Source: a virus (taxonomy: Duplodnaviria; Caudoviricetes). From it: 64,000 bases of DNA. The stretch covers positions 1-64,000 of the IMG/VR virus record IMGVR_UViG_3300037418_002577. One strand, 5' to 3'. This document shows positions 797 to 62,985 of the stretch, one piece after another. The notes beneath the pieces were generated by a model, which ran no database searches, was not told the origin of the DNA, and saw only the letters and a list, made by a program, of their open reading frames with translations. Each line of letters starts with the position of its first letter. Within the stretch, counting starts at the first letter, position 1. The position numbers and the translations under genes were made by a program.

Positions 797-1201
797 ATGG
801 CGAAAAGTAAAAACCCGACCAGTTTCTTGATCAACGCGAAAGAGTTTTCGTGCCGAGGCGACATTGAGTCGATGAGCACCGAGGAGCTCGGTGCATATCT
901 CCTGCTAATGTGCAAGGCGTGGAACGAAAGGCCGCCAGCGAGCGTTCCAGACGACGACGCGATACTCGCCAAATGGGCTCGGCTTACTCAGGCCCAATGG
1001 GCGCAATGCCGCGCGTCCGTTCTGAGTCATTTCAAAAAACGTCAAGACGGTCGGCTGTATGACGAAAGGCTGGAGCGAGAGTTTCAAGCACTCCGCGAGA
1101 GCCAACGGCGGAAAAGTGATGCCGGAAGGCGCGCGGTCAACGCAAGGTGGAGTCAGAGCGCAAAGAAACTGAAGAAGGTCATTGTTTACGTGGAGGAGTA
1201 G
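797..1201 (+). CDS. YdaU/DUF1376-family phage replication-associated protein
   Basis: Motif MSTEELGAYLLLMCKAW...DDDAILAKWARL...RLYDERLERE; RBS AAGGA upstream of ATG 797. Confidence 0.8.
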   Translation: MAKSKNPTSFLINAKEFSCRGDIESMSTEELGAYLLLMCKAWNERPPASVPDDDAILAKWARLTQAQWAQCRASVLSHFKKRQDGRLYDERLEREFQALRESQRRKSDAGRRAVNARWSQSAKKLKKVIVYVEE

Positions 1202-1207
1202 GGCCGG

Positions 1208-2233
1208 ATGTCCAAGAAGCTGCCTTCATTCCAGTTCTACCCAGGCGACCATCTCAAGGAACCGTCATTACGCCGATGCAGCAAGGCTGCAAAGGGCGTT
1301 TGGTTTGATATGATCTGCATATCATTCGAGTGTGAGGAACGGGGCGTGTTCCAGACTTCCGGGGTGCCGTGGCCAGATGGAGACATCGCCGCGGCGGTCG
1401 GAGGCGACATTGCTGAGAACCTACACGCTCTCGAGGAACTGCTGGCGAAGGGCGTCTGTTCCCGGAATCAATCTGGGGCAGTGTTCTGCCGTCGTGTGGT
1501 CCGCGATGAACGCAAAAGACGGCTATGTGGTGAAGCGGGTAAGATGGGGGGAGGAAATCCCGCCTTACGCAAAGGTGCGGCTAAAGGTGGGATTAAAGGT
1601 ACCTTAATAGGTGGGTCCAAACGGAATCCAAAGGCTTCATCTTCATCTTCGGATGAAGAGGGGGCGCTGCCCCCGTCTTCATCCACTTCGGCTGCAGCTT
1701 CAGCTTCAGTTTCTCCTGCGGAGCCGCCGCCAGAGGCGGCTTCTTTGGCTCCTCCGCCTACGGCGGCTGCGCCAAAGGCGGCTTCGCCGGAAGAGTCGGC
1801 TTCGCCTCCTGGATCGGCTAAAAGCGCCGATCCTCCTCGGCGTGTGGATCGATCCGAAGACATCCTCGCAGTCTTCGAGCACTACCGGAAGCACCGCCCA
1901 AAGCGGCATCTCCGCCCGAACTCCGAGTCGAAGGAGTGGAAGCATATCCGCGCCCGACTGAGTGAGGGGTTCACGGTCGCGGATCTGTGCGAGGCAATCG
2001 ACGGGATGATGCGATCCCCCTTCCACCAGGGGGAGAACGACCGCGGCGGCACGATGTTCGACAGCCTGGAGCTCGTCGTTCGGAACTCGTCCCAAATTGA
2101 GAAGTTTAAGGCGATTCCGGAGCGCGCCCCGGTAATCTCGCAATCCGCGAAGTTCACACATCGGGCGGCCGAGAGCTATTTGCAGCGGCGGTTCCCGTCA
2201 CAGGAGGAGTTGGAGCACGATGCCCCTTACTAA
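1208..2233 (+). CDS. Phage replication initiator (lambda O-like architecture)
   Basis: N-terminal PSFQFYPGD...KGVWFDMIC DUF1376-like wHTH, Ser/Pro/Ala linker with DNA repeats, helical C-terminal domain; followed by loader-like gene. Confidence 0.75.
   Translation: MSKKLPSFQFYPGDHLKEPSLRRCSKAAKGVWFDMICISFECEERGVFQTSGVPWPDGDIAAAVGGDIAENLHALEELLAKGVCSRNQSGAVFCRRVVRDERKRRLCGEAGKMGGGNPALRKGAAKGGIKGTLIGGSKRNPKASSSSSDEEGALPPSSSTSAAASASVSPAEPPPEAASLAPPPTAAAPKAASPEESASPPGSAKSADPPRRVDRSEDILAVFEHYRKHRPKRHLRPNSESKEWKHIRARLSEGFTVADLCEAIDGMMRSPFHQGENDRGGTMFDSLELVVRNSSQIEKFKAIPERAPVISQSAKFTHRAAESYLQRRFPSQEELEHDAPY
1571..1618 (+). repeat. 12-bp-period AAAGGT iterons inside the initiator gene (putative origin)
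   Basis: AAAGGT at 1571, 1583, 1595 and ATAGGT at 1607. Confidence 0.65.
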
Positions 2234-2882
2234 GCCTCAAGTTGCGCGGCTGGTGAAGTCAGTCGAGGCCCTAGCGATCAATTTCGGCAAGGCGGCCGGC
2301 GAGGAGTTGTTCCTGGCGTTCGAGATGGGCCTGGATGACTTGCCGATCGACCAAATCGAGCGGGCCGTCAGGCGCGCGATGCGCGAATGCGCGTTCATGC
2401 CGACCGTGATGCAGGTTCGGGAGTTGGCCGGCGTGGTGAGCGACAAGGATCGTTCCGTGCTGGCCTGGGAGTGCGTGCTGCGAGCGATCAGGAAGATCGG
2501 CATGCACGGCTCGGTTGACTTCGACGACCCGGTGATTAACGCGACCGTGCGGCACCTCGGGGGCTGGGAGAAGGTTTCTGGCGTCGAGACGGATCAACTG
2601 GATTGGGTCCGCAAGGCGTTCGAGGCGAACTATCAGGCTTGTTGTCGGGCCGGCATCTCGCAACGCGAGGCGCGGCCACTGCTGAGCGTCCACGACGCCT
2701 ACAACGCAGCGAACGGGTTTCTGTCGGAGGTGAAGCCGCCGCTGAAGATCGAGTCTGGGCTTCCGCCACACGCGCGGACTGTGTTGCGGATCGGGAAGTC
2801 GGAAGGGAAAGGGTTGGTGTCCGGTGTGGCGGCCGACCTCGGGAAGCGTTTGGGGATCGAGGACAAAGGAGCAAAGCCGTGA
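2220..2882 (+). CDS. Helicase loader/inhibitor-like protein (G39P-like N-terminus, DUF6475-like C-terminus)
   Basis: FMPTVMQVRELAG motif then AWECVLRAI...VDFDDPVINATVRHLGGW; position after initiator. Confidence 0.65.
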   Translation: MPLTKPQVARLVKSVEALAINFGKAAGEELFLAFEMGLDDLPIDQIERAVRRAMRECAFMPTVMQVRELAGVVSDKDRSVLAWECVLRAIRKIGMHGSVDFDDPVINATVRHLGGWEKVSGVETDQLDWVRKAFEANYQACCRAGISQREARPLLSVHDAYNAANGFLSEVKPPLKIESGLPPHARTVLRIGKSEGKGLVSGVAADLGKRLGIEDKGAKP

Positions 2883-3972: not shown

Positions 3973-4268
3973 GCCCCGGAAGCCCGAGACCGCAATTCGA
4001 GCCCCCCAAGCCAGGCTCCGCACGATGGAACGCAATGCTCAGACAGTGCCAGCATCGAAACGGAAGTGAAGCGGGATGCCCGTGCGGAGATCCAATGCTG
4101 TGCCGGGTGCCTGACGAAGAATTGGCTGATCGGATTGCGGCGTTAGATCGTGCGGACTTGGTGTGCATTCGGTACGCGGTGCGGTTGAAAGCGATGGGAC
4201 GTGTGACCTCTAACCCCAACCTGTAAGCGATGACAGGTTCCCCTCTGATGAAAGGCGGCGAGAACGAG

Positions 4269-6791: not shown

Positions 6792-7543
6792 AAACCAAAT
6801 ACAAATCCATCATCTTCGACGCATCCGAGGTGCAATCGCTCCTTGCCGGGAGGAAGACGCAGTTCCGGGAGCCAGCAAATCCGCAGCCAGTTTCACCGGG
6901 TAGCGCGAAGCCGAGACTCAGAGTCGGCGACATCGTGCGGGTGAAAGAGACATTTTGGGGAAAGCACGACATCGAAATCGGAGACTACGGTTCAGTCTAC
7001 TTCAACGGACCAGTCCTTGATGTTAGTGAGCAGTTTCATCCAGGCATCCAGTATCTCGCAACTCCTGAATGCTTCAACCTACCAACGCTGGAGTTCGGGC
7101 AGACAATCGAGCGATTCACTGGAGAGCCCGAGCCGGGAGACTGGTGGCTGTCACCTCCCGACGAATGGGACGGTCACGATGAGAATGATCATCTCCGTCG
7201 CGGCATCTGGACATTCCTTGCGTGGGGAAAAGGGAACTACACTCGCCATCCAGCAGGAACACTCCCAATCTGGGCCTCCCGTCGCTGGCTCGAAATCACC
7301 GAGGTACGGTGCCAGCGACTGATGGAGATCAGCGACGAGGACTGCAAAGCCGAAGATTGCGCCGGGTGGTACTCACCTTGCCATCCTGATTTTGGAGAGA
7401 CTGACGGGCGCACGCCGAGCGAGGAATACATCGAACGCTGGGACGCACGGCACGGAAATAAGCACCCGTCATCGGCGAATCCGTTTGTGTTCGCCTATTC
7501 GTTCCGGGTTGTGGAGAAGCCTGTTTTGAAAGGGAGCGAATGA
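6788..7543 (+). CDS. ASCH/PUA-like domain protein
   Basis: IIFDASEVQSLLAGRKTQFR...VGDIVRVKETF...WLEITEVRCQRL...NPFVFAYSF. Confidence 0.75.
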   Translation: MKTKYKSIIFDASEVQSLLAGRKTQFREPANPQPVSPGSAKPRLRVGDIVRVKETFWGKHDIEIGDYGSVYFNGPVLDVSEQFHPGIQYLATPECFNLPTLEFGQTIERFTGEPEPGDWWLSPPDEWDGHDENDHLRRGIWTFLAWGKGNYTRHPAGTLPIWASRRWLEITEVRCQRLMEISDEDCKAEDCAGWYSPCHPDFGETDGRTPSEEYIERWDARHGNKHPSSANPFVFAYSFRVVEKPVLKGSE

Positions 7544-8232
7544 GCAGAAGCCACACAGATGTACCAGCCACCGTCGAGCAGCATGCTTTGCCAGCGTTCA
7601 GCGGACTCATGTTCACGCTCGATGACGAGTTGCATGAACTGGTATTTGTCATGTATCACCAACGCAGGCCGTTCTCTGTCGAAACAGTTGAGCATTGGGA
7701 CCACAGCAAGAAGCCGTGGTTTAATCCCGAAAAGGACAAACCTCGCGGCTTTTGCCCGCAAGGATTTGACTTTGAGTATTGCCGTCGAAACGACACGATC
7801 TATCAACACAACTCCGGTGGCGGCGGTACGGTTCGAGTCGTGCTGCATGAAATCGTCGAAAAGCATCCGCCTTGTGAGATTTGGATAGCAGCAGGCATAC
7901 CGCTGTTTCGGCACGCCAAGAGAAAGCCTTTCAACGAAATCCCATTGAAGGACGGCGACCTCGAACGTCTCGGATACAAGCGGCTGCGGAAACCGCGTCT
8001 CTTGCGGGGCTGGAGAGACGAAGCGAGTCGCAACCCATTCGACGTTTCTGAAGAGGGAGAAACCGTCTACTGTCGTCGCTGCGAAGATCATCTTCCCGAC
8101 GAACCTGGGAGTGTTTGTAAGCACCTCTATTGGTGCGACGACTGTGGCGACTGGTTTTACCTCGACAACCGAATGGACAGCGATGGCGAGCGACGCAAAT
8201 GCGAATGCAAGAATGAAGACGACTGCGAATAG
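7540..8232 (+). CDS. Hypothetical Cys-rich protein
   Basis: ATGA overlap; C-terminal CxxC clusters; flanked by 24-bp direct repeats. Confidence 0.6.
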   Translation: MSRSHTDVPATVEQHALPAFSGLMFTLDDELHELVFVMYHQRRPFSVETVEHWDHSKKPWFNPEKDKPRGFCPQGFDFEYCRRNDTIYQHNSGGGGTVRVVLHEIVEKHPPCEIWIAAGIPLFRHAKRKPFNEIPLKDGDLERLGYKRLRKPRLLRGWRDEASRNPFDVSEEGETVYCRRCEDHLPDEPGSVCKHLYWCDDCGDWFYLDNRMDSDGERRKCECKNEDDCE

Positions 8233-18912: not shown

Positions 18913-18995
18913 GGTTCGCTCGATTCTTCGGGCTTGGGACCGATCCCCCTACGTCGGGGAGCGCATTAGACCGGGTTTCCCCGGCCCCCTCTGCG

Positions 18996-23859: not shown

Positions 23860-24015
23860 TGTCCTCGATTCGTAAAAACAGCATTAAAGACACGATTGAA
23901 TAATATGATGAATATGTAACAGATTTGCCAGATGAATACGACGGTAATTAATTACATAGTCCTAATTGGAGTTGCAAATTGATTCGCGCGCCTCCCCCCA
24001 AGCCGAAAATCAGGT
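23860..24015. promoter_or_regulatory. AT-rich divergent control region with 12-bp palindrome GTAATTAATTAC (23944-23955)
   Basis: Local AT richness between divergent genes; perfect palindrome. Confidence 0.55.
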
Positions 24016-29033: not shown

Positions 29034-29662
29034 TGGCACCGATTCGCACCAAGCAGACGCAGCCGACTCCGCCGGAGGCCAAGATTCCTTCGACAATGAA
29101 GACGTGCTGCGCCTGCAACAATGCGATGCCCGCGACCGATGTTTACTTCGATCTGGACGCCTCGCGCGAGGACGGGCTCCGTCAGCGGTGCAAAGACTGC
29201 CGGCGGAAAAAGAGCAAGGGGAACATGGAGAAGCGGGTCGGCGCGCATGCCCGGCGCCTCGACAAGCAGACTCGCAACATGCTGACCCTGTTGGCGAGCC
29301 CGGACTTCAGCCCTGATCAGGTCAACGGCGTCCCTCATATCGCCAGCGTCTACGAAGAGATCACCCGCCTCTTCGGCGGCGCGCAGGGGGTCGCCCAGCA
29401 TTTCATGATTCAGTACCTGGAAGCCCCGGCCGGCGGTCAGATCCGCCAGCGGATGCTGGATGCCTATCTCCGGCTGGCCAATAAGGTGTCCGACTCCGGG
29501 GCCGCGAAGAAGCCGCTCGAACTCTGGACCGAGGACGAGTTGCGAGAGTTCATGGAGAGGAAACGGGGCGAGTTGACCCAGGTCCAAACGATCTACGTCG
29601 AGCGGGAACCCTCCGGTCCCCCGTTGATCGAGGAGGCCGGTCATGGCACGCAAGCCACTTGA
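29033..29662 (+). CDS. Putative terminase small subunit with N-terminal C4 zinc finger
   Basis: CCAC...RCKDC; helical; immediately upstream of and overlapping TerL. Confidence 0.5.
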   Translation: MAPIRTKQTQPTPPEAKIPSTMKTCCACNNAMPATDVYFDLDASREDGLRQRCKDCRRKKSKGNMEKRVGAHARRLDKQTRNMLTLLASPDFSPDQVNGVPHIASVYEEITRLFGGAQGVAQHFMIQYLEAPAGGQIRQRMLDAYLRLANKVSDSGAAKKPLELWTEDELREFMERKRGELTQVQTIYVEREPSGPPLIEEAGHGTQAT

Positions 29663-31388
29663 TCTCCCGGCGCATCCCCCGGACCCGCGCGCCGGAGCGT
29701 TCACGCGATCGTCGCACGACACGGACGAATTCCTGGCCGCGGCGATGGAGTTGCAAAGCCGGTCTGAGGAGGCTCTGGCCCTTTACGAGCCGACCCCCTT
29801 TCAGGAAGCGTTTCACGCCTGCCCGTCACGTGAGCGGTTGATTCAGGCCGGCAATCAAGTTGGAAAATCTCTAGCCGCCTTCGTCGAGGTGGCGCGGGCC
29901 CTGACCGGCCAAGATCCGCACAACAAGTACCCCACGACGGACGGGGTCGCGATTTGCTTGGGGATCGACGAGAAGCACATCGGCCGCGTGATCCATAAGT
30001 ACCTCTTCCGCAAGGGGGCGTTCCGGATCATCCGCGACAAGGCGACCCGGAAATGGCGAGCCTGGAAGCCCTGGATTCCCGAGGATGCGGAGCGGCGGGC
30101 GGAAACTCGCCCGGCCCCACCGTTGATCCCGGAGCGGTTCATCAAGAAATGGGCGATGACCAAGGCCGCCAAGCACATCTTCGAGACGTGCGAGTTCCAT
30201 AACGGCTGGGTGCTGCACGCCTATTCGTCGAACTCCGAGCCGGCGGGCGGTTTCCAGGCCGACCTCGCCCACATCGACGAAGACATCATGCGGCCGGACT
30301 GGTACGACGAGTTGATCGCCCGCCTGTCGATGCGGAATGGCAAGCTGATCTGGTCGGCCCTCCCCCTCGCCAAGAACGACGCCCTGTGCAACGTGATCGA
30401 GCGGGCCGAGGATGAGGCGAGCAGCGATAAGCCGACGACCTCCGTGTTCCGGGCTTCGATCTTCGACAACCCCTACATGCCGGAAGAGGCAAAGCAAGAG
30501 AACATCAAGCGATGGCGGGCGAAGGGTGACGACGAGTACCGCAAGCGGGCCCTGGGCGAATTGGTCGTCGATTCGATCCTGATGTACCCGACCTTCTCCA
30601 AGACGCATCACTCGTGCATCAAGGCCGAGGATCCGCGGCTGGAGATTCAACGCATCCTGACCGATCGAAACGGCACGCCGCCCGATGACTGGACGCGGTA
30701 CATGATCGTCGACCCCGGTCACACGGTCTGCGCGGCCCTATTCTTCGCCACGCCGCCGCCCGAACTGGGCGACTTCCGTGTCTGCTATGACGAGCTCTAC
30801 ATTCAACAGGCCGACGCGAAGCTCCTGGGGATCGGGGCGAAATCGAAGTGCGGCGAAGACCACTTCGAGGATTTCATCATCGACATGCACGGCGGACGGA
30901 TCCGCGAGATCGGGAGCGGCGAGCTCCCTGTCCGGCAGTACGAACGGCACTTGGCCGACAACCAGGTGATTTGCGAGAAGCGGGGAAGCCGGTTCCTGGC
31001 CGGCTGCGATGACGTCGAAAGCCGCGAGGGATCGCTCCGGGAATGGCTGATGACGCGGCGCGACGGGACGACGAAGTTCCTGATCAACCCGGCCCGCTGC
31101 CCGCACACCTGCCGCGAGATGAGCCGGTTCAAGAAACTGACCACGACCGTCGGCGGCCAACTCGTCCCCACCGACAAGGGGAACCGAAAGGCGAACACCC
31201 ACTGCTGCGAATGCCTTGAGTACGGCGCGGCGCACGGACTTGATTTCGTCCCGCACAAATCCCGCGCGATCGCCCTCTCGCCGTTCCAGCGGAGGTTGGC
31301 CGCCCGAGTCGAACGGAAAAAGATCCGCCTTGCGAAAAGCTGGAACGGATCGGAAAAGACCATCACTCTCGGCCCGCAAGGGTCATAA
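29643..31388 (+). CDS. terL: Terminase large subunit
   Basis: Walker A AGNQVGKS, Walker B LAHIDED, nuclease YMIVDPG, C-terminal HCCECLEY. Confidence 0.9.
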   Translation: MARKPLDLPAHPPDPRAGAFTRSSHDTDEFLAAAMELQSRSEEALALYEPTPFQEAFHACPSRERLIQAGNQVGKSLAAFVEVARALTGQDPHNKYPTTDGVAICLGIDEKHIGRVIHKYLFRKGAFRIIRDKATRKWRAWKPWIPEDAERRAETRPAPPLIPERFIKKWAMTKAAKHIFETCEFHNGWVLHAYSSNSEPAGGFQADLAHIDEDIMRPDWYDELIARLSMRNGKLIWSALPLAKNDALCNVIERAEDEASSDKPTTSVFRASIFDNPYMPEEAKQENIKRWRAKGDDEYRKRALGELVVDSILMYPTFSKTHHSCIKAEDPRLEIQRILTDRNGTPPDDWTRYMIVDPGHTVCAALFFATPPPELGDFRVCYDELYIQQADAKLLGIGAKSKCGEDHFEDFIIDMHGGRIREIGSGELPVRQYERHLADNQVICEKRGSRFLAGCDDVESREGSLREWLMTRRDGTTKFLINPARCPHTCREMSRFKKLTTTVGGQLVPTDKGNRKANTHCCECLEYGAAHGLDFVPHKSRAIALSPFQRRLAARVERKKIRLAKSWNGSEKTITLGPQGS

Positions 31389-34154: not shown

Positions 34155-34724
34155 ATGGCAGGAATCTCCAGATCGAAGCGCATCGACATCCTTGAGGCGG
34201 AAATCGCTAATGCCCCGATCCACGTTCAGGATGCGTACTTCTGCGCCCTGATCGAGGGGACAGACGCCATTCTCGCCCACATGCTGGCGATGCGGCAGGG
34301 CCCGCAGATGAAGGGCTCCGACCGCGCCTTCGGGGAGGGGCAGCGGTTGAAGATGGGGGCGATGCACGAGCGGAACCGCGACAAGATCCAGGCGATCGCG
34401 GAGAAAGCCGGCATCCGCACGCAGGGAAAATACTACGTCGGCGGGCTCGGGCGCTACAACGACCCGGCCGCCTGGGTCTCAACCGCCGACGACGTGAAGT
34501 CGGTCCTGAAGGCGAAGAACCTCACGGCAACCGGAGTCGTCGAGCATCAAGGGGTCGCGATGCCGCCTCCGCCGCCGAAGCGACTGTCAGAGCGACTGAC
34601 GCGAGAGTTCGTCGCCAAGACGCTCAAGGCCGAACCCAAGACGGCGGAGGCGGTGCGGAAGAACCCGAAGAAAATGCGGGATCTCCGGGAACGGGTGATT
34701 GCTACTCACGGGGCGCGACGGTAG
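34155..34724 (+). CDS. Hypothetical head-associated protein
   Basis: Follows portal; RBS; 189 aa. Confidence 0.65.
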   Translation: MAGISRSKRIDILEAEIANAPIHVQDAYFCALIEGTDAILAHMLAMRQGPQMKGSDRAFGEGQRLKMGAMHERNRDKIQAIAEKAGIRTQGKYYVGGLGRYNDPAAWVSTADDVKSVLKAKNLTATGVVEHQGVAMPPPPPKRLSERLTREFVAKTLKAEPKTAEAVRKNPKKMRDLRERVIATHGARR

Positions 34725-35529
34725 GCAGCTTGTCTCGCCCGTTCTCGCAGCCTTTCAGGGGAAACCCGGCCTTGGCTGCATGGTACGCCCGCTCAATCGC
34801 CCCCTTCGACCACTCTTTGCCGGTCGTGCGCCGCACGCTACGCAGGAGCTTGTAGTACACCCGCATGTAGGACAGTTTGTCCCTGTCCAGTAGTTGCACA
34901 ATGTACTCGCACTGCTGGCGCTCCTCGGGATTCACAATGAAGCGGGACTTGGCCCCCTTGTCGATCTTCTTCCAGCCGATCGGGGTTCCGCCTCCATACG
35001 GGAGGCCTTGTCGGCGTTTCCAGGCCAGCGACTCTTTCGTGCGGGTTGCGATCATCGCCCGTTCGAGTTGGCCGACCGCACCCAGGATCTGAGCGAAGAA
35101 CATCCCGACATCCGTTGCCAGATCAATCGGGAAGTCCAGCAGATGCAACCGGACGTTGCGGGCCTTGAACTTCTCGAGCACCTCGCAAACTTCCTTGGTG
35201 GATCGCATCGCACGATCCATGCGGGCCACGACGACATGATCGCCGGGCCGCAGAAACCGCCAAACGGCCTCCCCTTGCGGGCGCTGCACCCAGGGCTTGC
35301 GGGTCGATTCGTTCGGGTCGCAGTACCAGCCGGCCCATTCCATGTTCGCCGGCAACTTCCCCGCGGCCTTGGAATCCCGGAACCACTTGAGGCACAGTTC
35401 CTCTTGCTGCTTCGGGCTGATGACCTGTTTGTCGGTCGAGGCGCGCCCGTAGCCGAACAGATACGGCCGGTCCTCGCGGTGGTCGTTGTTGACGAAGAGG
35501 TGGAGATTGTCCAAGATGGGATCAGCCAT
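34702..35529 (-). CDS. Serine recombinase (resolvase domain plus short recombinase-like domain)
   Basis: FGYGRAST (catalytic Ser), VVVARMDRAMRS, LERAMIATRTKE, PIGWK. Confidence 0.9.
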   Translation of the reverse strand: MADPILDNLHLFVNNDHREDRPYLFGYGRASTDKQVISPKQQEELCLKWFRDSKAAGKLPANMEWAGWYCDPNESTRKPWVQRPQGEAVWRFLRPGDHVVVARMDRAMRSTKEVCEVLEKFKARNVRLHLLDFPIDLATDVGMFFAQILGAVGQLERAMIATRTKESLAWKRRQGLPYGGGTPIGWKKIDKGAKSRFIVNPEERQQCEYIVQLLDRDKLSYMRVYYKLLRSVRRTTGKEWSKGAIERAYHAAKAGFPLKGCENGRDKLPTVAPRE

Positions 35530-43631: not shown

Positions 43632-44579
43632 ATGGCTGACACGATTACCCCGATCATGACCCCGCAGAGTTATCTCGCGATGTTCGACGAGGGGACCTGG
43701 GGCGACATGCCCGGCTCCCCGACCTACATCCATCTCCCCGTGTTCGATTACGGGGTGGACCTGGAGCCCGAGACGCGCGAGGCGACGCCCTTTACCGGGC
43801 TGTACCAGGAAAAGCACCTGGGCACCATCCGCGGGTTGCCGGCTGGCATGATTCGCACGGCGCTCTACGGCTGGCATCCAGCCGGCCTCGCGACGTCGTT
43901 GATGGAGTACCTGATCGACTGGGCCTTCCTGCACCAGGAAACCCAGCTTCTGCCGAGCAAGGGATTCGAGTGGGCGGAAGGCCCGGACCTGGCCAATCGA
44001 CGCCACCTGGGCTGCCGGGTCGACACGGCCACGTTGTCGGGGTCCGAGCAGTCGAAGATCGTCACGCTCGACCTGGGGATCAAGGGGCGCTCGGAGGAGA
44101 CATTTGCCACGGCCCAGACTCTCCCGGCCAACCGGAATAAGCTGGTCGAAGTCGAGTACCCGGACTGCAACTTCTCCATCGGCGGCAGTGAGGTCAAGAT
44201 TCAGGCGTTCGCGCTCCAGGCCCAGAACGGGCTGATCGTGTCGTTCCTCAACTCCAACACGCCGACGTTGCTCGTGAAAGCGGTGCGGCGAGTGGTCCTG
44301 TCGATGGTCCCCGCGAAGACCGCCGACACCTACAACGCGCTCTCCCGCGCGTTCTCGATGAATGAGTTCACCGGGCAGATCGTGCTCCGTGGCTTACACA
44401 ACGGCAGCGGCGTGACCGGCACGAAAGCGGTGGGCACGATCGACTTCCCCCGGATGGGATTCATTCGCCAAAAGGCCAAGGCCGGCCAGAGCCAAATCCT
44501 GTTCCAGCAGCTCAACTTCAAGATCATGAAACCGGATACGTCGGCGGCCGACATGACCACGACTTGGAGTGAGGAGTAA
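43632..44579 (+). CDS. Major tail tube protein
   Basis: YLAMFDEGTWG...YIHLPV..., GCRVDTATLSG, TIDFPRM; beta-rich 315 aa. Confidence 0.75.
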   Translation: MADTITPIMTPQSYLAMFDEGTWGDMPGSPTYIHLPVFDYGVDLEPETREATPFTGLYQEKHLGTIRGLPAGMIRTALYGWHPAGLATSLMEYLIDWAFLHQETQLLPSKGFEWAEGPDLANRRHLGCRVDTATLSGSEQSKIVTLDLGIKGRSEETFATAQTLPANRNKLVEVEYPDCNFSIGGSEVKIQAFALQAQNGLIVSFLNSNTPTLLVKAVRRVVLSMVPAKTADTYNALSRAFSMNEFTGQIVLRGLHNGSGVTGTKAVGTIDFPRMGFIRQKAKAGQSQILFQQLNFKIMKPDTSAADMTTTWSEE

Positions 44580-49551: not shown

Positions 49552-49644
49552 CCGGGCTTCCCAATTCCCGGTTCTCGCGGCATACTTGAAATCGGCCCCC
49601 AAGCCGTCCGCCTTCCCGGTTTTCTAAATCCCCGGAGGCGCGAC

Positions 49645-50964: not shown

Positions 50965-53900
50965 ATGCCCATTCAGAACCCACAAGACCGCCTCAACCGC
51001 CGCCTCAACCGAATCCGAGGGGGGCGCGGCCGCACCGCGACGAAGATCGCCCCGGCTGAGGATGAGTCGATGTTCCACGCCCTCGGGCGCAAGACGCTCG
51101 GGGCGCTCGGCAAGGCGGGGAATCTACTCGACACGATCGGCGGGACGACACGCACCGCCCTGGCCGGCGAGAACCCGCTGGCCGCCGCCGCAAATCCCCT
51201 GAGCGGGGAGCACCGGGTAAGCGGCCTTGATCTGCTGACCAAGTACGCGCCCGGTCTGGTCGGCACGAACGACCCGAAGAAGTGGGAACTCGGCGACGTC
51301 GGCCGCGGGCTCGCAGGATTTGCGACCGAAGTCGCCACAGATCCGATGACCTACGTCACCCTCGGGGGATCGGCCGTCTTGAAGGGCGGCGTGCGAGGCC
51401 TGGCGCACATCGGAATCCCGTTCACCAAGATCGGGAAGGTGGTCGGCACCGGACGCGTGGGGCAGAAGATCGTCGGGGCGGGCCGTGCCGTCAAGAATGC
51501 GGCGGCCTACGGCAACATCCCCGGCACGAAGCGTTCCCCCGGCCGGGCTCTTGCCCAGGCTTTCGACTCTCGAGTACTCGAGACGGCGACCCCTGAGTTC
51601 CAGCGGGCAACTCGAGCCAGGGCCGGCGCGGCTGACGCTGCACAGGCGGCCGAGCGAATGCAGGTTGCGAAGTGGACCACCGCGTTCCATCGGGCACACG
51701 AAGCCGGGATCGTCAACGCCCACGATTCGGCGGCCGTGCGGCGGATACTCGAGGGAGTCGATGCCGTTCCCCCGGAACTCAAACAGACGGTCAATGAGAT
51801 CCACAGCCATTTGGCCTCCCGGCAGCGCGAGTACACCCGGCGCGGGATCAAGGCCCCGGTCCTCGACGACATCGTGAACTATATCCCGCGGCAGTTGAGC
51901 AGCATGGCCACCGGGCCGCGTACCAGCGGATTGTCGCCCAACACGTTCGCCGCGGTCGAGCCGAGCCAAAAAGCCCGCAAGATGTTTCTGAAGGGGATTC
52001 CCGGCGGCACCGACCCGATCACCCGTCTTGGGCGCGACCCCGTGCTCAACGACATGATCGAGAAGAATGTCGGCAAGATTCAAATCGCGCGGCACATCAA
52101 GAAGAATTACCCCGAGATCCCGGTTTCCTACAACCGAAAACTGAAGGCCGGCGAGTATGGGCCGCCCAAGCCGAAAAGCCGCGTCCGGGCCTTGGCGACC
52201 TGGCTCAAGGAAGGCGTCTCGAAAGAAACCCGCCAATCGGGGATCTTCGGCAATACGCCGCTGCATGACATCCTGACCCACCGCTCACGAGTCGCCGATC
52301 GGCTGCACAACGTCGATACCGTGTACGACGTGCTCTCCCAGGCGGCCCAGCCGATGCGGATGCAGTCGAAGTCGCAGAACATGGTGCGGCTCGACAAGGT
52401 GTTCCGGGCGCTCAAGCTCGCGCCGGGGAAGATTGGATCGGGCGGCTGGATCCAGCAGATCGGAAACCGCAACCCGGCGCTGGCTGCGGAGATGCTTCGG
52501 GCGAAAAGCCCCTTTGCGTTCGCCAAGACGCTGCACGTTCCGCGCGCGCTGGCCGAGGACGCGCTGCGTACCCGCAAGGGGCTGCGGCTCCCCGCCGCCG
52601 TCGGCCCCGTGATGCAAGGGATCGACTCCCTGACGAACGTCACCAAGGCCGGGTTGACCGGGCCGTTCGCCAGCTTCCACGCCCGCAACCGACTGTCGGG
52701 CGCCGTGAAGAATGCGACCGAGGGGTTGCTGCGGAGTCCCAAGTCAGAATTGGACGCCGGCACCCTTCTGCGCGGCGGCAGCCTGCCGGGAGTCGAGCAG
52801 ATCCCGGAAGTCGCCAACATCCTCCAGAGCCGGGGGTTGCCGATCACCAACGCGAACGCGACCGACGTGTTCCGCCAACTCGCCTTTTCGCACGGGCTCT
52901 CGCAAAGCCACCTGGGGGAAGCGGCCGCCCGGATCGGAGGCGCGCCGGAAGGGAGTTCCTTCCAATCACTCTCGAGCCAACTCCCCGGCATCGGCGGCGG
53001 CTTTCGCTGGAAGGATGTCGCCAAGCAGGCGATCGGCGCGACCCCGACGACCACCGTCAACCCGCTCAAGGGGACCGTCCGCGGCGGATTCAACGCCACC
53101 CCGGAATCCAGCTTCGGACCGGTCAAGGCCGGCGAGACCCTGGGGAATTACGTCGAGGGATTGAACCGCCTCTCCCCGCTGCTCGACGAGATGCGGCGCG
53201 GCGTGCCGAGTGCTGAGGCCGCCCGCAAGATTAAGTCCGCTCAGGTGGACTATTCCGCGAAAGCCTATACCCCGTTCGAGCGCGACGTCTTAACCCGCGT
53301 CATGCCGTTCTATAAGTTTCAGAAAGGATCTACTGTCCATCTGGCAAAGGAGTTAGCGTCTAAGCCTGGAGGCGCGACGGCTCAACTCATGAGAGCCACA
53401 AACAAACTACGTGGCGATCAGAATCAGCCGCTCCCTGAGTATGTCGGGGACACGGCGGCGATCCCTTTGCCCGGTGCTCATGCGGACGGAACGCGGTCCT
53501 ATCTGACGGGCCTGGGCCTAATGCACGAATCCCCCCTGGAGTTCGCCGGCGGCAACCCGCTGCTCGAAGCCGTCTCCCGCGCGAACCCGCTCTTGAAGGG
53601 TCCGATCGAGGCGGCGTTCGGCCAGAGCGCCTTCCAGAAGTCGGCGGAAGGGGGCCGCCCCTTGACCGACATGGACCCGCTGGCCGGCCGGCTGCTGGCG
53701 AACCTTACGGGACGAGACGAGCCGTACCGGATCAATCCGCTGCTCGAGCATGTCCTGGCCAACTCGCCCCTGTCTCGGGCGCTGACGACTGCTAAGACGC
53801 TCACTGATCGTCGTCCCTCTGCGACACTCGTCAAGAAAGCGCTCAACCTCGGGACCGGCCTGCGGATCACCGACGTCTCGCCAGCCAGCCAGGAGAAGGT

Positions 53901-54108
53901 GCTGCGCGAAAAGTTGAACGAAGAGATGCACGCGCTTGGCGGACGGAACTTCAACGAGGTGTATCTCCCTGAATCTCGCATGAAGAATATGAGCACGAGC
54001 GAACTTCAATACGTGCAACAACTTAAGAAGATGAATGCACTCTTAGGTAAGAAGGCTCGCACCCGAGCTAAGACGAAAAAGCAGAAAAAAGTAGCAATCC
54101 CCTCTTGA
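50965..54108 (+). CDS. Large internal virion/ejection protein
   Basis: 1047 aa, Gly/Ala-rich; VDY...TPFERDVLTRVMPFY motif typical of podovirus-like core proteins (recall). Confidence 0.6.
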   Translation: MPIQNPQDRLNRRLNRIRGGRGRTATKIAPAEDESMFHALGRKTLGALGKAGNLLDTIGGTTRTALAGENPLAAAANPLSGEHRVSGLDLLTKYAPGLVGTNDPKKWELGDVGRGLAGFATEVATDPMTYVTLGGSAVLKGGVRGLAHIGIPFTKIGKVVGTGRVGQKIVGAGRAVKNAAAYGNIPGTKRSPGRALAQAFDSRVLETATPEFQRATRARAGAADAAQAAERMQVAKWTTAFHRAHEAGIVNAHDSAAVRRILEGVDAVPPELKQTVNEIHSHLASRQREYTRRGIKAPVLDDIVNYIPRQLSSMATGPRTSGLSPNTFAAVEPSQKARKMFLKGIPGGTDPITRLGRDPVLNDMIEKNVGKIQIARHIKKNYPEIPVSYNRKLKAGEYGPPKPKSRVRALATWLKEGVSKETRQSGIFGNTPLHDILTHRSRVADRLHNVDTVYDVLSQAAQPMRMQSKSQNMVRLDKVFRALKLAPGKIGSGGWIQQIGNRNPALAAEMLRAKSPFAFAKTLHVPRALAEDALRTRKGLRLPAAVGPVMQGIDSLTNVTKAGLTGPFASFHARNRLSGAVKNATEGLLRSPKSELDAGTLLRGGSLPGVEQIPEVANILQSRGLPITNANATDVFRQLAFSHGLSQSHLGEAAARIGGAPEGSSFQSLSSQLPGIGGGFRWKDVAKQAIGATPTTTVNPLKGTVRGGFNATPESSFGPVKAGETLGNYVEGLNRLSPLLDEMRRGVPSAEAARKIKSAQVDYSAKAYTPFERDVLTRVMPFYKFQKGSTVHLAKELASKPGGATAQLMRATNKLRGDQNQPLPEYVGDTAAIPLPGAHADGTRSYLTGLGLMHESPLEFAGGNPLLEAVSRANPLLKGPIEAAFGQSAFQKSAEGGRPLTDMDPLAGRLLANLTGRDEPYRINPLLEHVLANSPLSRALTTAKTLTDRRPSATLVKKALNLGTGLRITDVSPASQEKVLREKLNEEMHALGGRNFNEVYLPESRMKNMSTSELQYVQQLKKMNALLGKKARTRAKTKKQKKVAIPS

Positions 54109-54133
54109 CACTTGAAAAAAACCTAAGTAGCGT
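54105..54133 (+). promoter_or_regulatory. Strong sigma70-type promoter upstream of lysis region
   Basis: TTGACA-N17-TAGCGT. Confidence 0.75.
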
Positions 54134-54139
54134 TGGTGC

Positions 54140-54260
54140 ATCGTCCGCCAAAAAAGCGGGCGGTGCAAACAACGTAGGCGTGACGGCCAAAACTGTCATT
54201 CCGAAATCTCTAGTTCGTGGAGTGCGAACAGAGCCGTTAATTGCACCGCCCGCTTTTTTA
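54140..54260 (+). ncRNA. Structured ~120-nt leader/small RNA closed by a 19-bp stem and U-tract
   Basis: Perfect inverted repeat 54150-54168 / 54241-54259, two inner hairpins, alternative 5' hairpin. Confidence 0.6.
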
Positions 54261-54283
54261 TTTGGCACGACGGAGATTAAACG

Positions 54284-54541
54284 ATGGACGTCACTCAACT
54301 TTTTACGCAACTCGGCCCGTTCGTCGGACTTGTGGTTGTGATCGGAATGGCGCTGTGGAAGTGTGCGACGTGGTTCGCCCCCCGTGTCGACAAGGTGGTC
54401 GACGGGCATGTGGAATACCTGCAATCGTCGAAAAAGGTGATGGAGTCACAGGCCGCCACGCTGACGGAGTTGAGTGCGATGGTCGGCGATATTCACAACC
54501 GGGTCATCGTGACCGGCTGTAGCCAAAACCAACGAGCATAA
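54284..54541 (+). CDS. Holin-like single-TM coiled-coil protein
   Basis: FVGLVVVIGMALW TM, then amphipathic helix; RBS GGAG; follows virion genes. Confidence 0.55.
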   Translation: MDVTQLFTQLGPFVGLVVVIGMALWKCATWFAPRVDKVVDGHVEYLQSSKKVMESQAATLTELSAMVGDIHNRVIVTGCSQNQRA

Positions 54542-54914: not shown

Positions 54915-55409
54915 GTGGCCAAGAAAAGCGGTTACATCCCGGCGTTTGTGAAGGCGAAGATCCTCGCCAACAAGATCTCAAAGCAAGCGCCCAAGTCGAA
55001 GCCAGGCAAGGTCACGTATCCCGACTCCTACAGCGAGTTCGAGATTCAATCGTTCCTGCACACGGCCCTACGCGAGAAGGGCTACGACGCCCGCGGCGAA
55101 GTGCGAACGACAACCGGCAAGTCGCGTTTCGACATCGTCATCTTCGAGCAGAAGAAGGCCGTGCGGATCATCGAGATCAAGAAGGGGAAGGTCGGCGGCC
55201 ACACGAAAAAGAAACACGAGCAGTCTCAGTTGCTCGCCCAGGAACTGCAGATCGAAAAGTATCGGCAACACGGGCTCCCCGTTCATCACATCCTCGGAAT
55301 GGATGCGGCGGTCGAGTATGTTGCTGGAATGCCTGACCTGGAAGCGCCTGCCGTGCGGCAAAGGAGAGTGGTCGCCGAGATGTTTACCTCGCAGTGCTGT
55401 ATCGCTTGA
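54915..55409 (+). CDS. PD-(D/E)XK-superfamily nuclease
   Basis: SEFEIQ (I), RFDIVIF (II), IIEIKK (III), QIEKY (QxxxY); GGAG before GTG 54915. Confidence 0.75.
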   Translation: MAKKSGYIPAFVKAKILANKISKQAPKSKPGKVTYPDSYSEFEIQSFLHTALREKGYDARGEVRTTTGKSRFDIVIFEQKKAVRIIEIKKGKVGGHTKKKHEQSQLLAQELQIEKYRQHGLPVHHILGMDAAVEYVAGMPDLEAPAVRQRRVVAEMFTSQCCIA

Positions 55410-55444
55410 AGATTGCGGTGGTGTGAAGTGAGGTCCAAAGAACG

Positions 55445-55497
55445 CAAAAACCGCCTGCCCCGGAAAGGTAGCGGTTTCGGCGTCGAGGTCAGTCTGG
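55445..55497 (-). ncRNA. Putative ~50-nt antisense small RNA with intrinsic terminator
   Basis: Starts just after the minus promoter; ends in AAACCGC...GCGGTTTTT hairpin/U-tract; no ORF. Confidence 0.55.
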
Positions 55498-55502
55498 GGG
55501 GA

Positions 55503-55531
55503 ATTATAACCCTCCTCGGTTATGTTTGCAA
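55503..55531 (-). promoter_or_regulatory. Strong minus-strand sigma70-type promoter
   Basis: TTGCAA-N17-TATAAT on minus strand. Confidence 0.75.
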
Positions 55532-55534
55532 GAA

Positions 55535-55860
55535 CTTTTACCGCTGAAAAGAACTTGAGGCCCTCTAAAGGGGCCGGTTGTGCTGGGTTAAATCCTCCCC
55601 AGTGAAAAGGTCGGATTGTGAAAGCAGCTTCCGCACGGCGGTTTCCCAGGCAACGGGCAGGTAGTTGATCCTGCGTCGAGAGATACGTCCTGGTCCAAAT
55701 GTGATAACGCGAACAAAAAGCTGCAGCGAAGCGATCGAGGCCCTTTCCTCACAGACAGCCAACAAGAACTGATCGAACGCAAGAGACGAGGGACACCTGG
55801 ATTCTTGGGCTAAAGCCCTAAGGATCACAGGGGAATCTCGCATGGGATAACGAGTTTTTA
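55535..55860 (+). ncRNA. Hairpin-dense non-coding region (candidate structured RNA; strand uncertain)
   Basis: Many stems read by eye, e.g. GCAGCT/AGCTGC, CCAGG/CCTGG, GCAGG/CCTGC, CCTGGATTCTTGGGC/GCCCTAAGGATCACAGG, CTCG/CGAG. Confidence 0.4.
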
Positions 55861-55872
55861 CAGGCCATAGAA

Positions 55873-56457
55873 ATGAACCAAACCGACATCCGCGCCCTGT
55901 TCGTCCGAGAGTGGCACATTGTCATCGGCGGCTTCCAGCAAGACCTCGGGACTTACTCGGGAATGCGTCACGTCTGGCGGGGCCTGCACCGTTTCGCGGG
56001 GGACGAGATTGCGGTGGTGTTCTACCCCTGGCGCGCGGACTGGAAGCAACTGGCCGAGTTGATCTCTCAGATGCGGCCCGCGGACGGGAAGCCGGTGGTC
56101 AAGATTTACGCTTACTCTTGGGGCTGTGGGCACGGCTTCACGAAACTGGCGGCCGAGCTCGGTAAGCGAAACATCGACGTGGCAGCCGCTGTCTTGTCTG
56201 ACCCGGTGTTCTACTCGTCGTTCCTGTCGACGCGGTTTCTGGCGTTCGCTCCGAACTGGCCGATCCGCGTCCCGGAGACAGTGAGGCATGTCGAGGTGTT
56301 CCGGCAGAACTTTGAGTTGCTGCGTGGGCATCGGCTGGCGTGGAACCCGGAGACGACCACGGTGGTTGAGCACGTTCCGCCCGCGCACATTTCGCACACG
56401 GAGATGGACGATCTCCAGGCGTTCTGGGATCGGTGCCAGGAAATCGCGAAGGAATAG
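55873..56457 (+). CDS. Alpha/beta-hydrolase (esterase/cutinase-like)
   Basis: Nucleophile elbow YAYSWG, LSDPV, ISHTEMD as candidate Ser-Asp-His triad. Confidence 0.7.
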   Translation: MNQTDIRALFVREWHIVIGGFQQDLGTYSGMRHVWRGLHRFAGDEIAVVFYPWRADWKQLAELISQMRPADGKPVVKIYAYSWGCGHGFTKLAAELGKRNIDVAAAVLSDPVFYSSFLSTRFLAFAPNWPIRVPETVRHVEVFRQNFELLRGHRLAWNPETTTVVEHVPPAHISHTEMDDLQAFWDRCQEIAKE

Positions 56458-58166: not shown

Positions 58167-58524
58167 CGTCGCGCTGAAGGCGATGGGCGGCGAATCAACC
58201 CACGGATCGGAGCCGGGAGTGGATGAAATGCTCGTCCTGGGGAATTACAACGTGACGCAGCAGTTGCACCCGTCGGCGGTTTCGGCTCCATCGCCGTCCG
58301 CCCCTGGGCCAGCCAATTCCAAACTCGGGACGCTGGCCAAGCTCGGGGTCGGAGCCGCGCTCCTGGCGACCGGGATCGGCGGCGGGGTTGGCGCGTCGTT
58401 GATCTTCAGTGCGTTGACGCAACGGCCATCGAATCCGCCGGTCGTGCGCCCCGTCCCCAAGCAATCGCAAACCCTGTTCGATCTGGACTTCGGTCCCGAG
58501 GTTGTTCCGCCTCCGCCGAGATGA
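58040..58524 (+). CDS. Membrane protein with Gly-rich C-terminal TM segment
   Basis: LGVGAALLATGIGGGVGASLIF. Confidence 0.6.
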
Positions 58525-58595
58525 ATCCTTTCGAGGGGCTGGTCCGCTTGGCACGATGCCGCGGGCCGGCCTTTTTCTATTCGAGGAGTAAAGCC

Positions 58596-59687
58596 ATGCC
58601 CATCCGCCTGATCGTGATTTCTGCATCCGCACTATTGTCGCTGTGTCTGATCGGATGCAATGACGAGTCTTGCCCCCCCAACATGGAAGAGATCGCGCGG
58701 AGTAGCTGTGGCGATGGTCGTAGTGATTATCAGTGCTGGCCTGGAACTGATCGGAACCGTGACGGCGAGCGTTTTTGGTATGACAATTTTGGACAACGGC
58801 TCTACTTCAGCCGCGGGAGAGTCTGGAGGCAATGTTGCGGAACTCGGGGATGGAACGCCAAGGGCAATCCCCACCGAAACAATGTCACGCTACTTAAGAA
58901 GCCGTTTCGCTATAACCCCACAAGGATCCCAGCCATGCCTATCCGCCCGACGCTCGTATTCGCCCTCCTGTGCGTGCCCGCCGCCGCGGACGACACAATC
59001 CCCGCCCCGGCGAAGTACGGCACGCCAGACGCGGCCTATGCAACGCACGGGGGCTATCTCTCGGCGTTCGATCCGCGGACCCGCAACCCGCGTTGGGTGC
59101 TCGAGCGAATCGACCGGACGTCGCTGCGGAATGTGGTCAAGCGAGACACGGAGAAGTTCCGCCCCGATTCGTCCCTGCCGGCCGTGTTCCGCGTGGACGA
59201 CCGCGATTACCTGCGGAGCCAGTGGGACCGCGGGCATCTGGCGGCCGCCGCAAATCACCTCGCCAGCCAGGCGGACCTGGACAGCACGTTCCTGTTCTCG
59301 AACACGATGCCGCAGTCCGCCCCCTGCAACCGTGGGATCTGGGCGCGGCTCGAAGCGGAGATCCGCGACCTCGCCGAGCAAGAGGACGTTGGCGCCGTGT
59401 TCGTGCTGACGCTGCCGCTGTGGAGCGCCGGGCCGGATGGGATGGTGCGGCATGCGGTCATCGGGCCACATCGGGTGTTCGTGCCGACGCATTGCGGGAA
59501 GTCGGTCCTGATCGAGCGCGGCGACCGCTTGGAACTGCGGGCCTGGATGGTGCCGAACCTGGACTGCGGCAGCCTGGAGACGCATCACTTCCGCTGCCCG
59601 GTCGATCTGCTGGAGTCCGAGGCCGCGCTCGACTTCTGGGCGGCCCTGGAGGACAGCGAAGAAGCGGAGTTGGAAGCCGTCAAATAG
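58596..59687 (+). CDS. DNA/RNA non-specific (NucA/Serratia-type) endonuclease; lipoprotein-like long form, second start at 58935
   Basis: RNPRWVLE, WDRGHLAAAAN, FLFSNTMPQ...NRGIWARLE, VPTHCGK; lipobox LIGC. Confidence 0.85.
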   Translation: MPIRLIVISASALLSLCLIGCNDESCPPNMEEIARSSCGDGRSDYQCWPGTDRNRDGERFWYDNFGQRLYFSRGRVWRQCCGTRGWNAKGNPHRNNVTLLKKPFRYNPTRIPAMPIRPTLVFALLCVPAAADDTIPAPAKYGTPDAAYATHGGYLSAFDPRTRNPRWVLERIDRTSLRNVVKRDTEKFRPDSSLPAVFRVDDRDYLRSQWDRGHLAAAANHLASQADLDSTFLFSNTMPQSAPCNRGIWARLEAEIRDLAEQEDVGAVFVLTLPLWSAGPDGMVRHAVIGPHRVFVPTHCGKSVLIERGDRLELRAWMVPNLDCGSLETHHFRCPVDLLESEAALDFWAALEDSEEAELEAVK

Positions 59688-62491: not shown

Positions 62492-62739
62492 GTCTGAAAT
62501 CAGTTTCTGATATTATTTCCGCCTTCGCAATTGGTAGATATCCCGAACAACAGGTTGTGGTCGAGCCAGCGAGCGAGGCTGGATTTTGTATCTTGTAAAC
62601 ACCCGTTCATGTGGTAATCTGGTCTCATTCGGATCAAGGAATGATCAACCCGCCACCGGCGCAGAGCCGGACGAACGCTGCCCCGGAAACCAACTGCGGC
62701 CATGACAGGCCAAAGGGCGGCCTTGCAGGAGAAACCTGC

Positions 62740-62985
62740 ATGCGACACGTCAAACTCACCCATCGCCAAGCCGCCGTTCTGAGCTATATCCGCTCCACTG
62801 CTCGTCTCCGCGGCCGGCCCCCGTCCCTTCGCGAGATCGCCCGCCACTTCGGGATCGCATCCACCAATGGCGTCGGATGCCACCTGCTGGCGCTCCGTCG
62901 CAAGCGGGTGCTGACCTGGAAGGTGGACGATTCCCGCACGCTGCAGCCGGCGATCACCCTCCCTTTCGGCGGGGACGTTGGCTGA
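62740..62985 (+). CDS. Stand-alone LexA-like DNA-binding wHTH (no peptidase domain)
   Basis: LTHRQAAVLSYI...GRPPSLREIARHFGIASTNGVGCHLLAL; RBS CAGGAG. Confidence 0.85.
   Translation: MRHVKLTHRQAAVLSYIRSTARLRGRPPSLREIARHFGIASTNGVGCHLLALRRKRVLTWKVDDSRTLQPAITLPFGGDVG

Follow-up and report, generated by a model that had tools for sequence, protein, structure and literature searches.

What does a long, branched hairpin do between the last gene of a phage tail operon and a small conserved gene that begins directly behind it? The question is raised by a 175-nucleotide (nt) spacer in IMGVR_UViG_3300037418_002577, probably a temperate tailed phage, of which positions 1 to 64,000 were analysed (the window). 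The spacer lies between a gene of 1047 amino acids (aa), the last of the tail/late block, and an 85-aa gene. The bacteria of this phage are of the planctomycete type, and next to nothing is known of how phages of the Planctomycetota regulate their genes. An earlier interpretation, made from the letters alone (the sequence-only reading), had proposed a promoter followed by an RNA of about 120 nt with two alternative folds, an attenuator or riboswitch that would time lysis. Most likely, the role of the element is an ordinary one, that of an operon-end terminator serving as an attenuator, although its branched form is unusual. More precisely, the hairpin is read here as one of the intrinsic-terminator type, which closes the tail operon and attenuates transcription either partially or depending on a factor. 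The probability of this reading is put somewhat above even, at roughly 0.55.

A hairpin with a forked interior behind the tail genes

The two arms of the hairpin, 54150-54168 on the left and 54241-54259 on the right, pair over 19 nt without a single mismatch, just where the sequence-only reading had placed them, and the right arm ends in a U-tract. This inverted repeat is the longest and best of the 64-kb window, and the arm pair occurs there only once with three mismatches permitted (0.01 chance matches expected). Counting the A6 and T6 tracts, the complementarity comprises 19 perfect base pairs (bp) and 4 more. The dominant RNAfold structure consists of the 19-bp stem (P1), a 2x2 internal loop, a short helix AACG/CGUU (54171-54174 with 54235-54238) and then a three-way junction carrying two hairpins, P2 (54177-54202, loop CCAAAA) and P3 (54208-54233). 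The junction strands measure 2, 5 and 1 nt, with GAAAU as the linker. The folding program thereby returned the same three-way junction inside the stem that had been proposed from the letters. The fold of these 110 nt (54150-54259) is very stable, with an energy of -56.6 kcal/mol (z-score -7.8) and, with flanks added, of -60.9 kcal/mol (z -6.3). The 72-nt interior folded alone is not clearly more stable than expected by chance (z -1.8, 12 of 200 shuffles).

The stem comprises 13 GC-rich bp, is extended by A6/U6 pairing and is followed by U6AUUU (tail TTTTTTATTT). The element thus presents the GC-rich stem directly before a U-rich tract that is typical of intrinsic terminators. Because of this stem base and U-tract, and of a position at which related phages terminate, termination on the + strand is taken as the core function; the ordinary terminators that these relatives carry at the same position favour the simpler reading, that of an operon-end terminator. 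Between the U6 run and the start codon (ATG at 54284) there are only 24 nt, GGAG included. This leaves no room for a separate promoter, so the 85-aa gene has to be transcribed through the hairpin. The element sits in the only possible leader of that gene, which upholds its earlier placement directly upstream of it. A conserved gene directly behind the hairpin suggests, in turn, that termination is incomplete or conditional.

It is proposed that the element acts as + strand RNA, as a terminator of the Rho-independent type that marks the end of the tail/late operon and in which a 72-nt forked insert replaces the terminator loop. As an attenuator, it would set the amount of transcription passing from the tail operon into a cassette made of the 85-aa gene, a winged helix-turn-helix (wHTH) gene and a PD-(D/E)XK nuclease gene. 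Either the branched loop makes for an inefficient terminator, which would result in a fixed step-down of expression, or read-through is controlled. A conserved gene behind a branched terminator would offer a simple and testable case of the separation of a tail operon from its neighbours.

In RNA that has passed the terminator, the pairing of segment D (Table 1) is predicted to lengthen the rod to about 29 bp, as far as the GGAG ribosome-binding site (54272-54275), whose first G is included. This longer helix might allow processing by RNase III or dampen translation to some extent. A site whose proper role is processing or stability, at which a cut in the duplex separates the tail and downstream mRNAs or destabilises one of them, is quite unlikely. 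In its length, the perfect duplex would suffice for RNase III, and it would be extended in read-through RNA (54141-54152 with 54261-54272, to about 29 bp), and a predicted twister ribozyme between two genes (18928-18995) points to intercistronic RNA cutting in the same genome. However, a U-tract is not needed for this role, and the relatives lack a comparable duplex at the same position.

Several points weigh against a terminator acting as an attenuator. Efficient intrinsic terminators have loops of 3-8 nt, and the compact loop of about this size is missing here (72 nt); the large interior may stand for poor termination or for another purpose. An enclosed 72-nt interior is unique, both among the terminators of this phage and in 740 kb of related DNA. 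All relatives examined lack the element, which makes it impossible to demonstrate selection on it. Moreover, the minus strand folds almost as stably as the + strand (-55.3 kcal/mol), and this near-equality, together with the A6 tract, is also compatible with a bidirectional terminator or with a site acting at the DNA level. Finally, the behaviour of the host RNA polymerase is assumed.

Table 1. Positions of the features discussed; entries beginning with an L number lie in related loci, all others in the window.
Feature	Coordinates	Strand	Basis
1047-aa gene, last of the tail/late block	50965-54108	+	Open reading frame (ORF); stop codon overlaps TTGACA
Putative promoter, TTGACA-17-TAGCGT, start near 54140	54105-54133	+	Hexamer match
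Segment A, near-copy of the right arm; 12 bp with the left arm, two G-U pairs, loop CAAAAAA	54137-54148	+	Folding (-21.3 kcal/mol), shuffles
Segment B, left arm of the 19-bp stem (A6 + GCGGGCGGTGCAA)	54150-54168	+	Inverted-repeat search, RNAfold
Forked interior: closing helix AACG/CGUU, P2, P3	54171-54238	+	Minimum-free-energy and centroid folds agree
Segment C, right arm (TTGCACCGCCCGC + T6) running into ATTT	54241-54263	+	GC-rich stem base and U-tract
Segment D, pairs with 54141-54152 in read-through RNA	54261-54272	+	Prefix folding
85-aa protein gene, one transmembrane helix and a helical tail	54284-54541	+	ORF, homologues
Large terminase	29643-31388		
Tail tube gene	43632-44579		
LexA-type DNA-binding protein	62611-62985		
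L012, small basic ORF	2510-2614		
L022, small basic ORF	7266-7370		
L051, small basic ORF	904-1011		
L057, small basic ORF	1093-1206		
L068, small basic ORF	8089-8226		
L084, small basic ORF	1437-1556		
L118 (G777), small basic ORF		reverse	

The competing hairpin and the promoter-like match

Ahead of the left arm lies a near-copy of the right arm, GCATCGTCCGC (54138-54148), which can pair with the left arm in a 12-bp hairpin (A:B) containing two G-U pairs (-21.3 kcal/mol). Prefix folding predicts that the nascent RNA adopts A:B as long as the right arm is still to be transcribed. Shuffled versions of the 41 upstream bases fold equally well with the left arm in only 20 of 5000 cases. The differences between segments A and C are both C-to-T, and pairing in RNA is retained; read from the minus strand, the G-U pairs of A:B become A-C mismatches. 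Altogether, four G-U pairs, two in A:B and two in P2, function only in + strand RNA. The capture of the left arm by the near-copy, which makes the two folds mutually exclusive, had been noticed from the sequence and is borne out in silico.

A transcript in which A:B is enforced lies 18 kcal/mol above the minimum, and the barrier on the direct path from A:B to the terminator fold is estimated at about 6.5 kcal/mol. As a rough estimate, such a barrier would allow refolding within tens of milliseconds, faster than the pause of the polymerase at the U-tract. According to this modelling, A:B alone is a weak antiterminator and does not represent a kinetic trap by itself. Given the low barrier and the deficit of 18 kcal/mol, a regulated switch would need a trans-acting factor such as a protein or a modified polymerase, or else a state stabilised by a ligand. 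The competitor would form first and would then be displaced, unless a factor holds A:B or modifies the RNA polymerase. Ten bases in the end of the large gene (53936-53945, TTGGCGGACG) are perfectly complementary to 54142-54151 of segment A, which gives this segment a second possible partner in the long transcript of the tail operon.

The two exclusive folds could be the parts of a signal-sensing switch, with the forked interior as an aptamer or a protein platform, an explanation that is regarded as rather unlikely. Folding of the interior, or binding to it, would let AACG/CGUU nucleate the 19-bp stem, displace A:B and cause termination; otherwise, A:B would persist and the cassette would be transcribed. 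The order of folding, A:B coming first, is consistent with such a switch, and so are the double use of the terminator stem as the closing helix of a three-way junction, the location in the sole leader that the following gene can have, the lack of a match to any known family and the fact that the phage has no other branched terminator-like site. These points are opposed by the lack of any homologue or covariation, by the z-score of only -1.8 for the interior with junction strands of just 2, 5 and 1 nt, by the energy deficit and the low barrier of A:B, and by a competitor located 5' of the aptamer, unlike the usual layout of riboswitches. The RNA-level switch of the sequence-only reading holds in its structure and its exclusive folds, but its aptamer is unsupported, and A:B would be quickly displaced when unaided. 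The fuller version, a gated terminator with a 5' competitor and a stem that also closes a three-way-junction sensor, so that a factor of the phage or of the host, or a small molecule, gates the cassette, is likewise doubtful; the RNA of about 120 nt might, in that case, act in trans. Should the fork indeed bind something, it would represent a new class of regulatory RNA.

The promoter-like match is composed of TTGACA (54105-54110), which overlaps the stop codon of the large gene, a spacer of 17 nt and TAGCGT (54128-54133), and an A is present at the expected transcription start. It is the sole match to TTGACA-N16-18-TANNNT in the window; at least one match is, however, obtained in 23% of shuffled windows. 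TAGCGT agrees with TATAAT at three of six bases, and a scan with a stricter consensus did not list the site. The hexamers and their spacing are as the sequence-only reading had given them, but they constitute weak evidence for a promoter. This weak promoter is possibly a second source of transcription through the element. Inspection of the sequence revealed no convincing minus-strand promoter to the right of the element.

A stand-alone small RNA gene would extend from this promoter to its own terminator and yield an RNA of about 120 nt (about 54140 to 54260), either acting in trans or arising as a by-product of polymerase-modifying antitermination. The A at the expected start and the strong terminator features agree with such a gene, and a 5'-terminal hairpin together with a 3' hairpin would be stabilising. 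It is nevertheless unlikely: the promoter is weak (TAGCGT at 3/6, and 23% of the shuffles match), and the RNA has no known target and no conservation. Furthermore, neither a Q-like nor another antiterminator family was detected with Pfam among the ~60 ORFs scanned, most of which have no family, the last 9.6 kb of the contig lying outside the window.

At the DNA level, the three GC-rich copies could be operator half-sites, or the inverted repeat could be a recombination site or the end of a mobile element. Directly behind the -10 hexamer, at about +1 to +28 of the putative promoter, segments A and B make up a palindrome whose halves are 7 bp apart; C would be a distant third site, and a candidate regulator is the wHTH protein, encoded two genes downstream in the same cassette. 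Both strands, moreover, fold equally well. This explanation is nonetheless very improbable, as 19 perfect bp plus 4, with A6 and T6 included, go far beyond the needs of a half-site and the changes between A and C, both C-to-T, preserve pairing in RNA. In addition, no target-site duplication was found, and further copies are absent from the window, from 398 genomes and, bar one chance site, from G001, a metagenome-assembled genome of the Tepidisphaeraceae.

The hexamer TTGACA is depleted in the window, with 7 copies vs. 21.5 +/- 4.8 in dinucleotide shuffles, which could result from the avoidance of promoter-like hexamers or from mere codon bias. Another motif, CCCCCAAGCC (core CCCAAGCC), occurs in several spacers (4003-4012, 23995-24004 and 49596-49605 on the + strand; 2918-2925 on the - strand) and lies twice 25-47 nt ahead of a start codon (24022, 49645). 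This motif may be a phage promoter or a regulatory box, and it is not found in the spacer 54109-54283.

Relatives, rarity and known systems

Homologues of the 1047-aa protein are encoded in many phage contigs (24-42% identity). A total of 85 loci holding them, from IMG/VR and metagenomes, were used for comparison, along with prophage copies in three Planctomycetales genomes, which carry distant relatives of the large gene (38-44% identity). No relative of this gene is present in 141 Tepidisphaerales genomes. Flanking proteins identical to those of the window (1047-aa and 85-aa) are encoded in 8-9 public contigs. The next gene abuts the large gene in most relatives. A subset (L012, L022, L051, L057, L068/L082, L084 and G777) displays a window-like layout with a small basic ORF after the large gene, and a plain hairpin-plus-T-run terminator follows this ORF in L012, L057, L068/L082, L084 and G777. 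An operon end at this place is hence recurrent in the lineage, though the element itself is not conserved. The branched hairpin of the window stands in place of the small ORF of the relatives. The products of this ORF family are basic, 34-48 aa long, with a motif P..VKNV.G and a Lys/Gly-rich tail. A hidden member in the spacer of the window was considered and rejected, as the hidden Markov model of the family matches no frame.

The exact arm is not found in IMG/VR, and the 16- and 17-mers of the interior gave chance matches only in this database. No match of the element to the 85 related loci was obtained with blastn or nhmmer. A covariance model built from the single sequence (R1) found nothing in 86 sources, nor in 151 genomes of the Planctomycetales, the order of Planctomicrobium piriforme (G384), and the GenBank phages contain no protein or DNA match. 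The sequence-only reading had looked to a covariation model from related phages; no homologue was found with R1, so that neither conservation nor covariation is available. A conserved aptamer with covariation across species, the mark of a riboswitch, is accordingly missing from the searched sets, and no aptamer can be claimed. The branched structure is real and an orphan.

No Rfam family matches the element at gathering level, in agreement with its earlier description as a candidate new RNA, and a scan of the whole window by E-value concurs. For ribozymes, pRNA, Y RNA and known leaders, no score comes near the gathering threshold. At E-values of up to 10, two chance-level matches appear, sRNA41 (22 bits vs. 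45) and SNORA74.

The closest relative with a homologue of the 85-aa gene is L012, in which a long structured spacer precedes this homologue. It contains a terminator, an AT-rich stretch and a cloverleaf-like fold, and is not recognisably related to the element of the window. The fold (2742-2807) has four helices and an anticodon-like loop, UUCAUUG; it comes after the AT-rich, promoter-like stretch and ~120 nt before the homologue, and neither ARAGORN nor Rfam calls a tRNA there.

About ten compact hairpin-plus-T-run sites are located at gene ends in the window, so terminators with a U-tract presumably work in the host, and the canonical kind is the usual one in this phage. Among the terminator-like sites of the phage, the element (54156-54253) is the only branched one, and its T tail is the richest in the window. 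A stem of this kind, with at least 12 perfect bp around 30-120 nt and a T tract behind it, was not detected a second time in 740 kb of related and host DNA. The nearest analogue in shape, in L030 (2566-2661), has a 13-bp stem, a forked interior of ~70 nt and T-rich flanks; its interior is unrelated. It is preceded by a 3' fragment of a tRNA (2477-2540, probably an att site) and followed by an integrase gene. A strong compact terminator of the window, at 58537-58571 (+ strand, -26.7 kcal/mol, tail TTTTTCTATT), lies just inside the Endonuclease_NS frame (58521-59687), the true start of which is therefore probably further downstream.

An interspersed repeat of the MITE (miniature inverted-repeat transposable element) or REP (repetitive extragenic palindromic) type was also rejected, as there is one copy in the window and the end pattern occurs in 0 of 398 genomes. 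A match in L086, part of G001, is a chance one, sharing only the 13 bases searched; the interior of that site is unrelated, and the site lies between convergent genes and is single-copy there. Long hairpins abound between the genes of genome G001 (L086-L106); their perfect stems measure 14-33 bp and their interiors up to 95 nt. Thirteen were counted in 60 kb, ~22 per 100 kb, vs. 0-0.5 in the other genomes and phage loci sampled. They are mostly found at the 3' ends of genes, without T tracts, each with a sequence of its own. This abundance makes the chance match in L086 easier.

Intrinsic terminators, among them bidirectional ones that possess A and T tracts, have the GC-rich stem base, the U-run, the upstream A-run pairing with it and the operon-end position in common with the element. 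They differ from it by their loop, 3-8 nt instead of 72 nt and forked, and the element has, in addition, a promoterless conserved gene within 24 nt and a competing hairpin upstream. Attenuators and riboswitch platforms, like the three-way-junction purine riboswitches, are similar in their leader position and in alternative pairings sharing a strand of the terminator, which are predicted for the element; in the purine riboswitches, a three-way junction is also closed by a helix. Unlike in riboswitches, the element has neither a conserved aptamer nor an Rfam match, the junction strands are very short, the closing helix is the terminator itself, and the competitor lies 5' of the junction.

Phage systems offer further likenesses. 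In lambda pR'-tR' (6S RNA, Q) and HK022 put, as possibly here, a promoter is followed by a terminator ahead of late-expressed genes. The element, on the contrary, comes after the structural genes, its promoter is weak, and no put-like match was found. A unit of the lambda kind would require a genuine promoter as well as an antiterminator. The RNase III sites of T7 and lambda sib/tI also present a long perfect intercistronic duplex that is longer in read-through RNA, but their sequence and shape are unrelated to those of the element. The phi29 pRNA and the three-way twister-sister ribozyme are alike in outline only (a long helix, a small internal loop, a short helix and two hairpins), as the element matches neither Rfam model even at E 10.

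The downstream gene and the phage

Homologues of the 85-aa protein were found in L012 (27% identity, E 4e-10), in Planctomicrobium piriforme and in one further cluster; the gene is hence a real one. No Pfam or PHROG family corresponds to the protein, and a locus search in IMG/VR based on it gave no match. The gene had been labelled holin-like, and the element had been supposed to time lysis. The label is based on a single transmembrane helix, to which the Atlas adds a weak lead, Holin_BhlA being listed for 17% of a neighbouring cluster (score 0.90); no family matches. The genes that follow encode a wHTH protein and a PD-(D/E)XK nuclease and not an endolysin, and with such neighbours the timing of lysis is conjecture. 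No flanking repeats marking a mobile cassette were found between 54100 and 55900, and the structure of the tract 55400-55880 is not significant (z -1.3).

The 1047-aa gene is the last member of a tight block of + strand genes from ~41.4 to 54.1 kb. Its Atlas entries are viral clusters, with an LPD38 lead. The tail genes have a third-position GC content of 0.80-0.87, which falls to 0.71-0.75 behind the element, and the overall GC content decreases from 0.63-0.68 to 0.55. This drop marks a module boundary at the element. Many ORFs of the window belong to no known family, and ARAGORN detected neither a tRNA nor a tmRNA in it.

The twister ribozyme mentioned above is self-cleaving, of type P5, and is encoded on the minus strand (18928-18995), with a score of 50.9 bits vs. 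a gathering score of 37.6. Its neighbours are a 504-aa DUF3560 gene and a 214-aa methyltransferase-like gene, whose 83-nt spacer it fills; at least one polycistronic mRNA of this phage is probably cut by a ribozyme. A serine recombinase with a resolvase/invertase domain (E 3e-27) is encoded on the minus strand at 34702-35529, opposite to the head genes amid whose block it lies.

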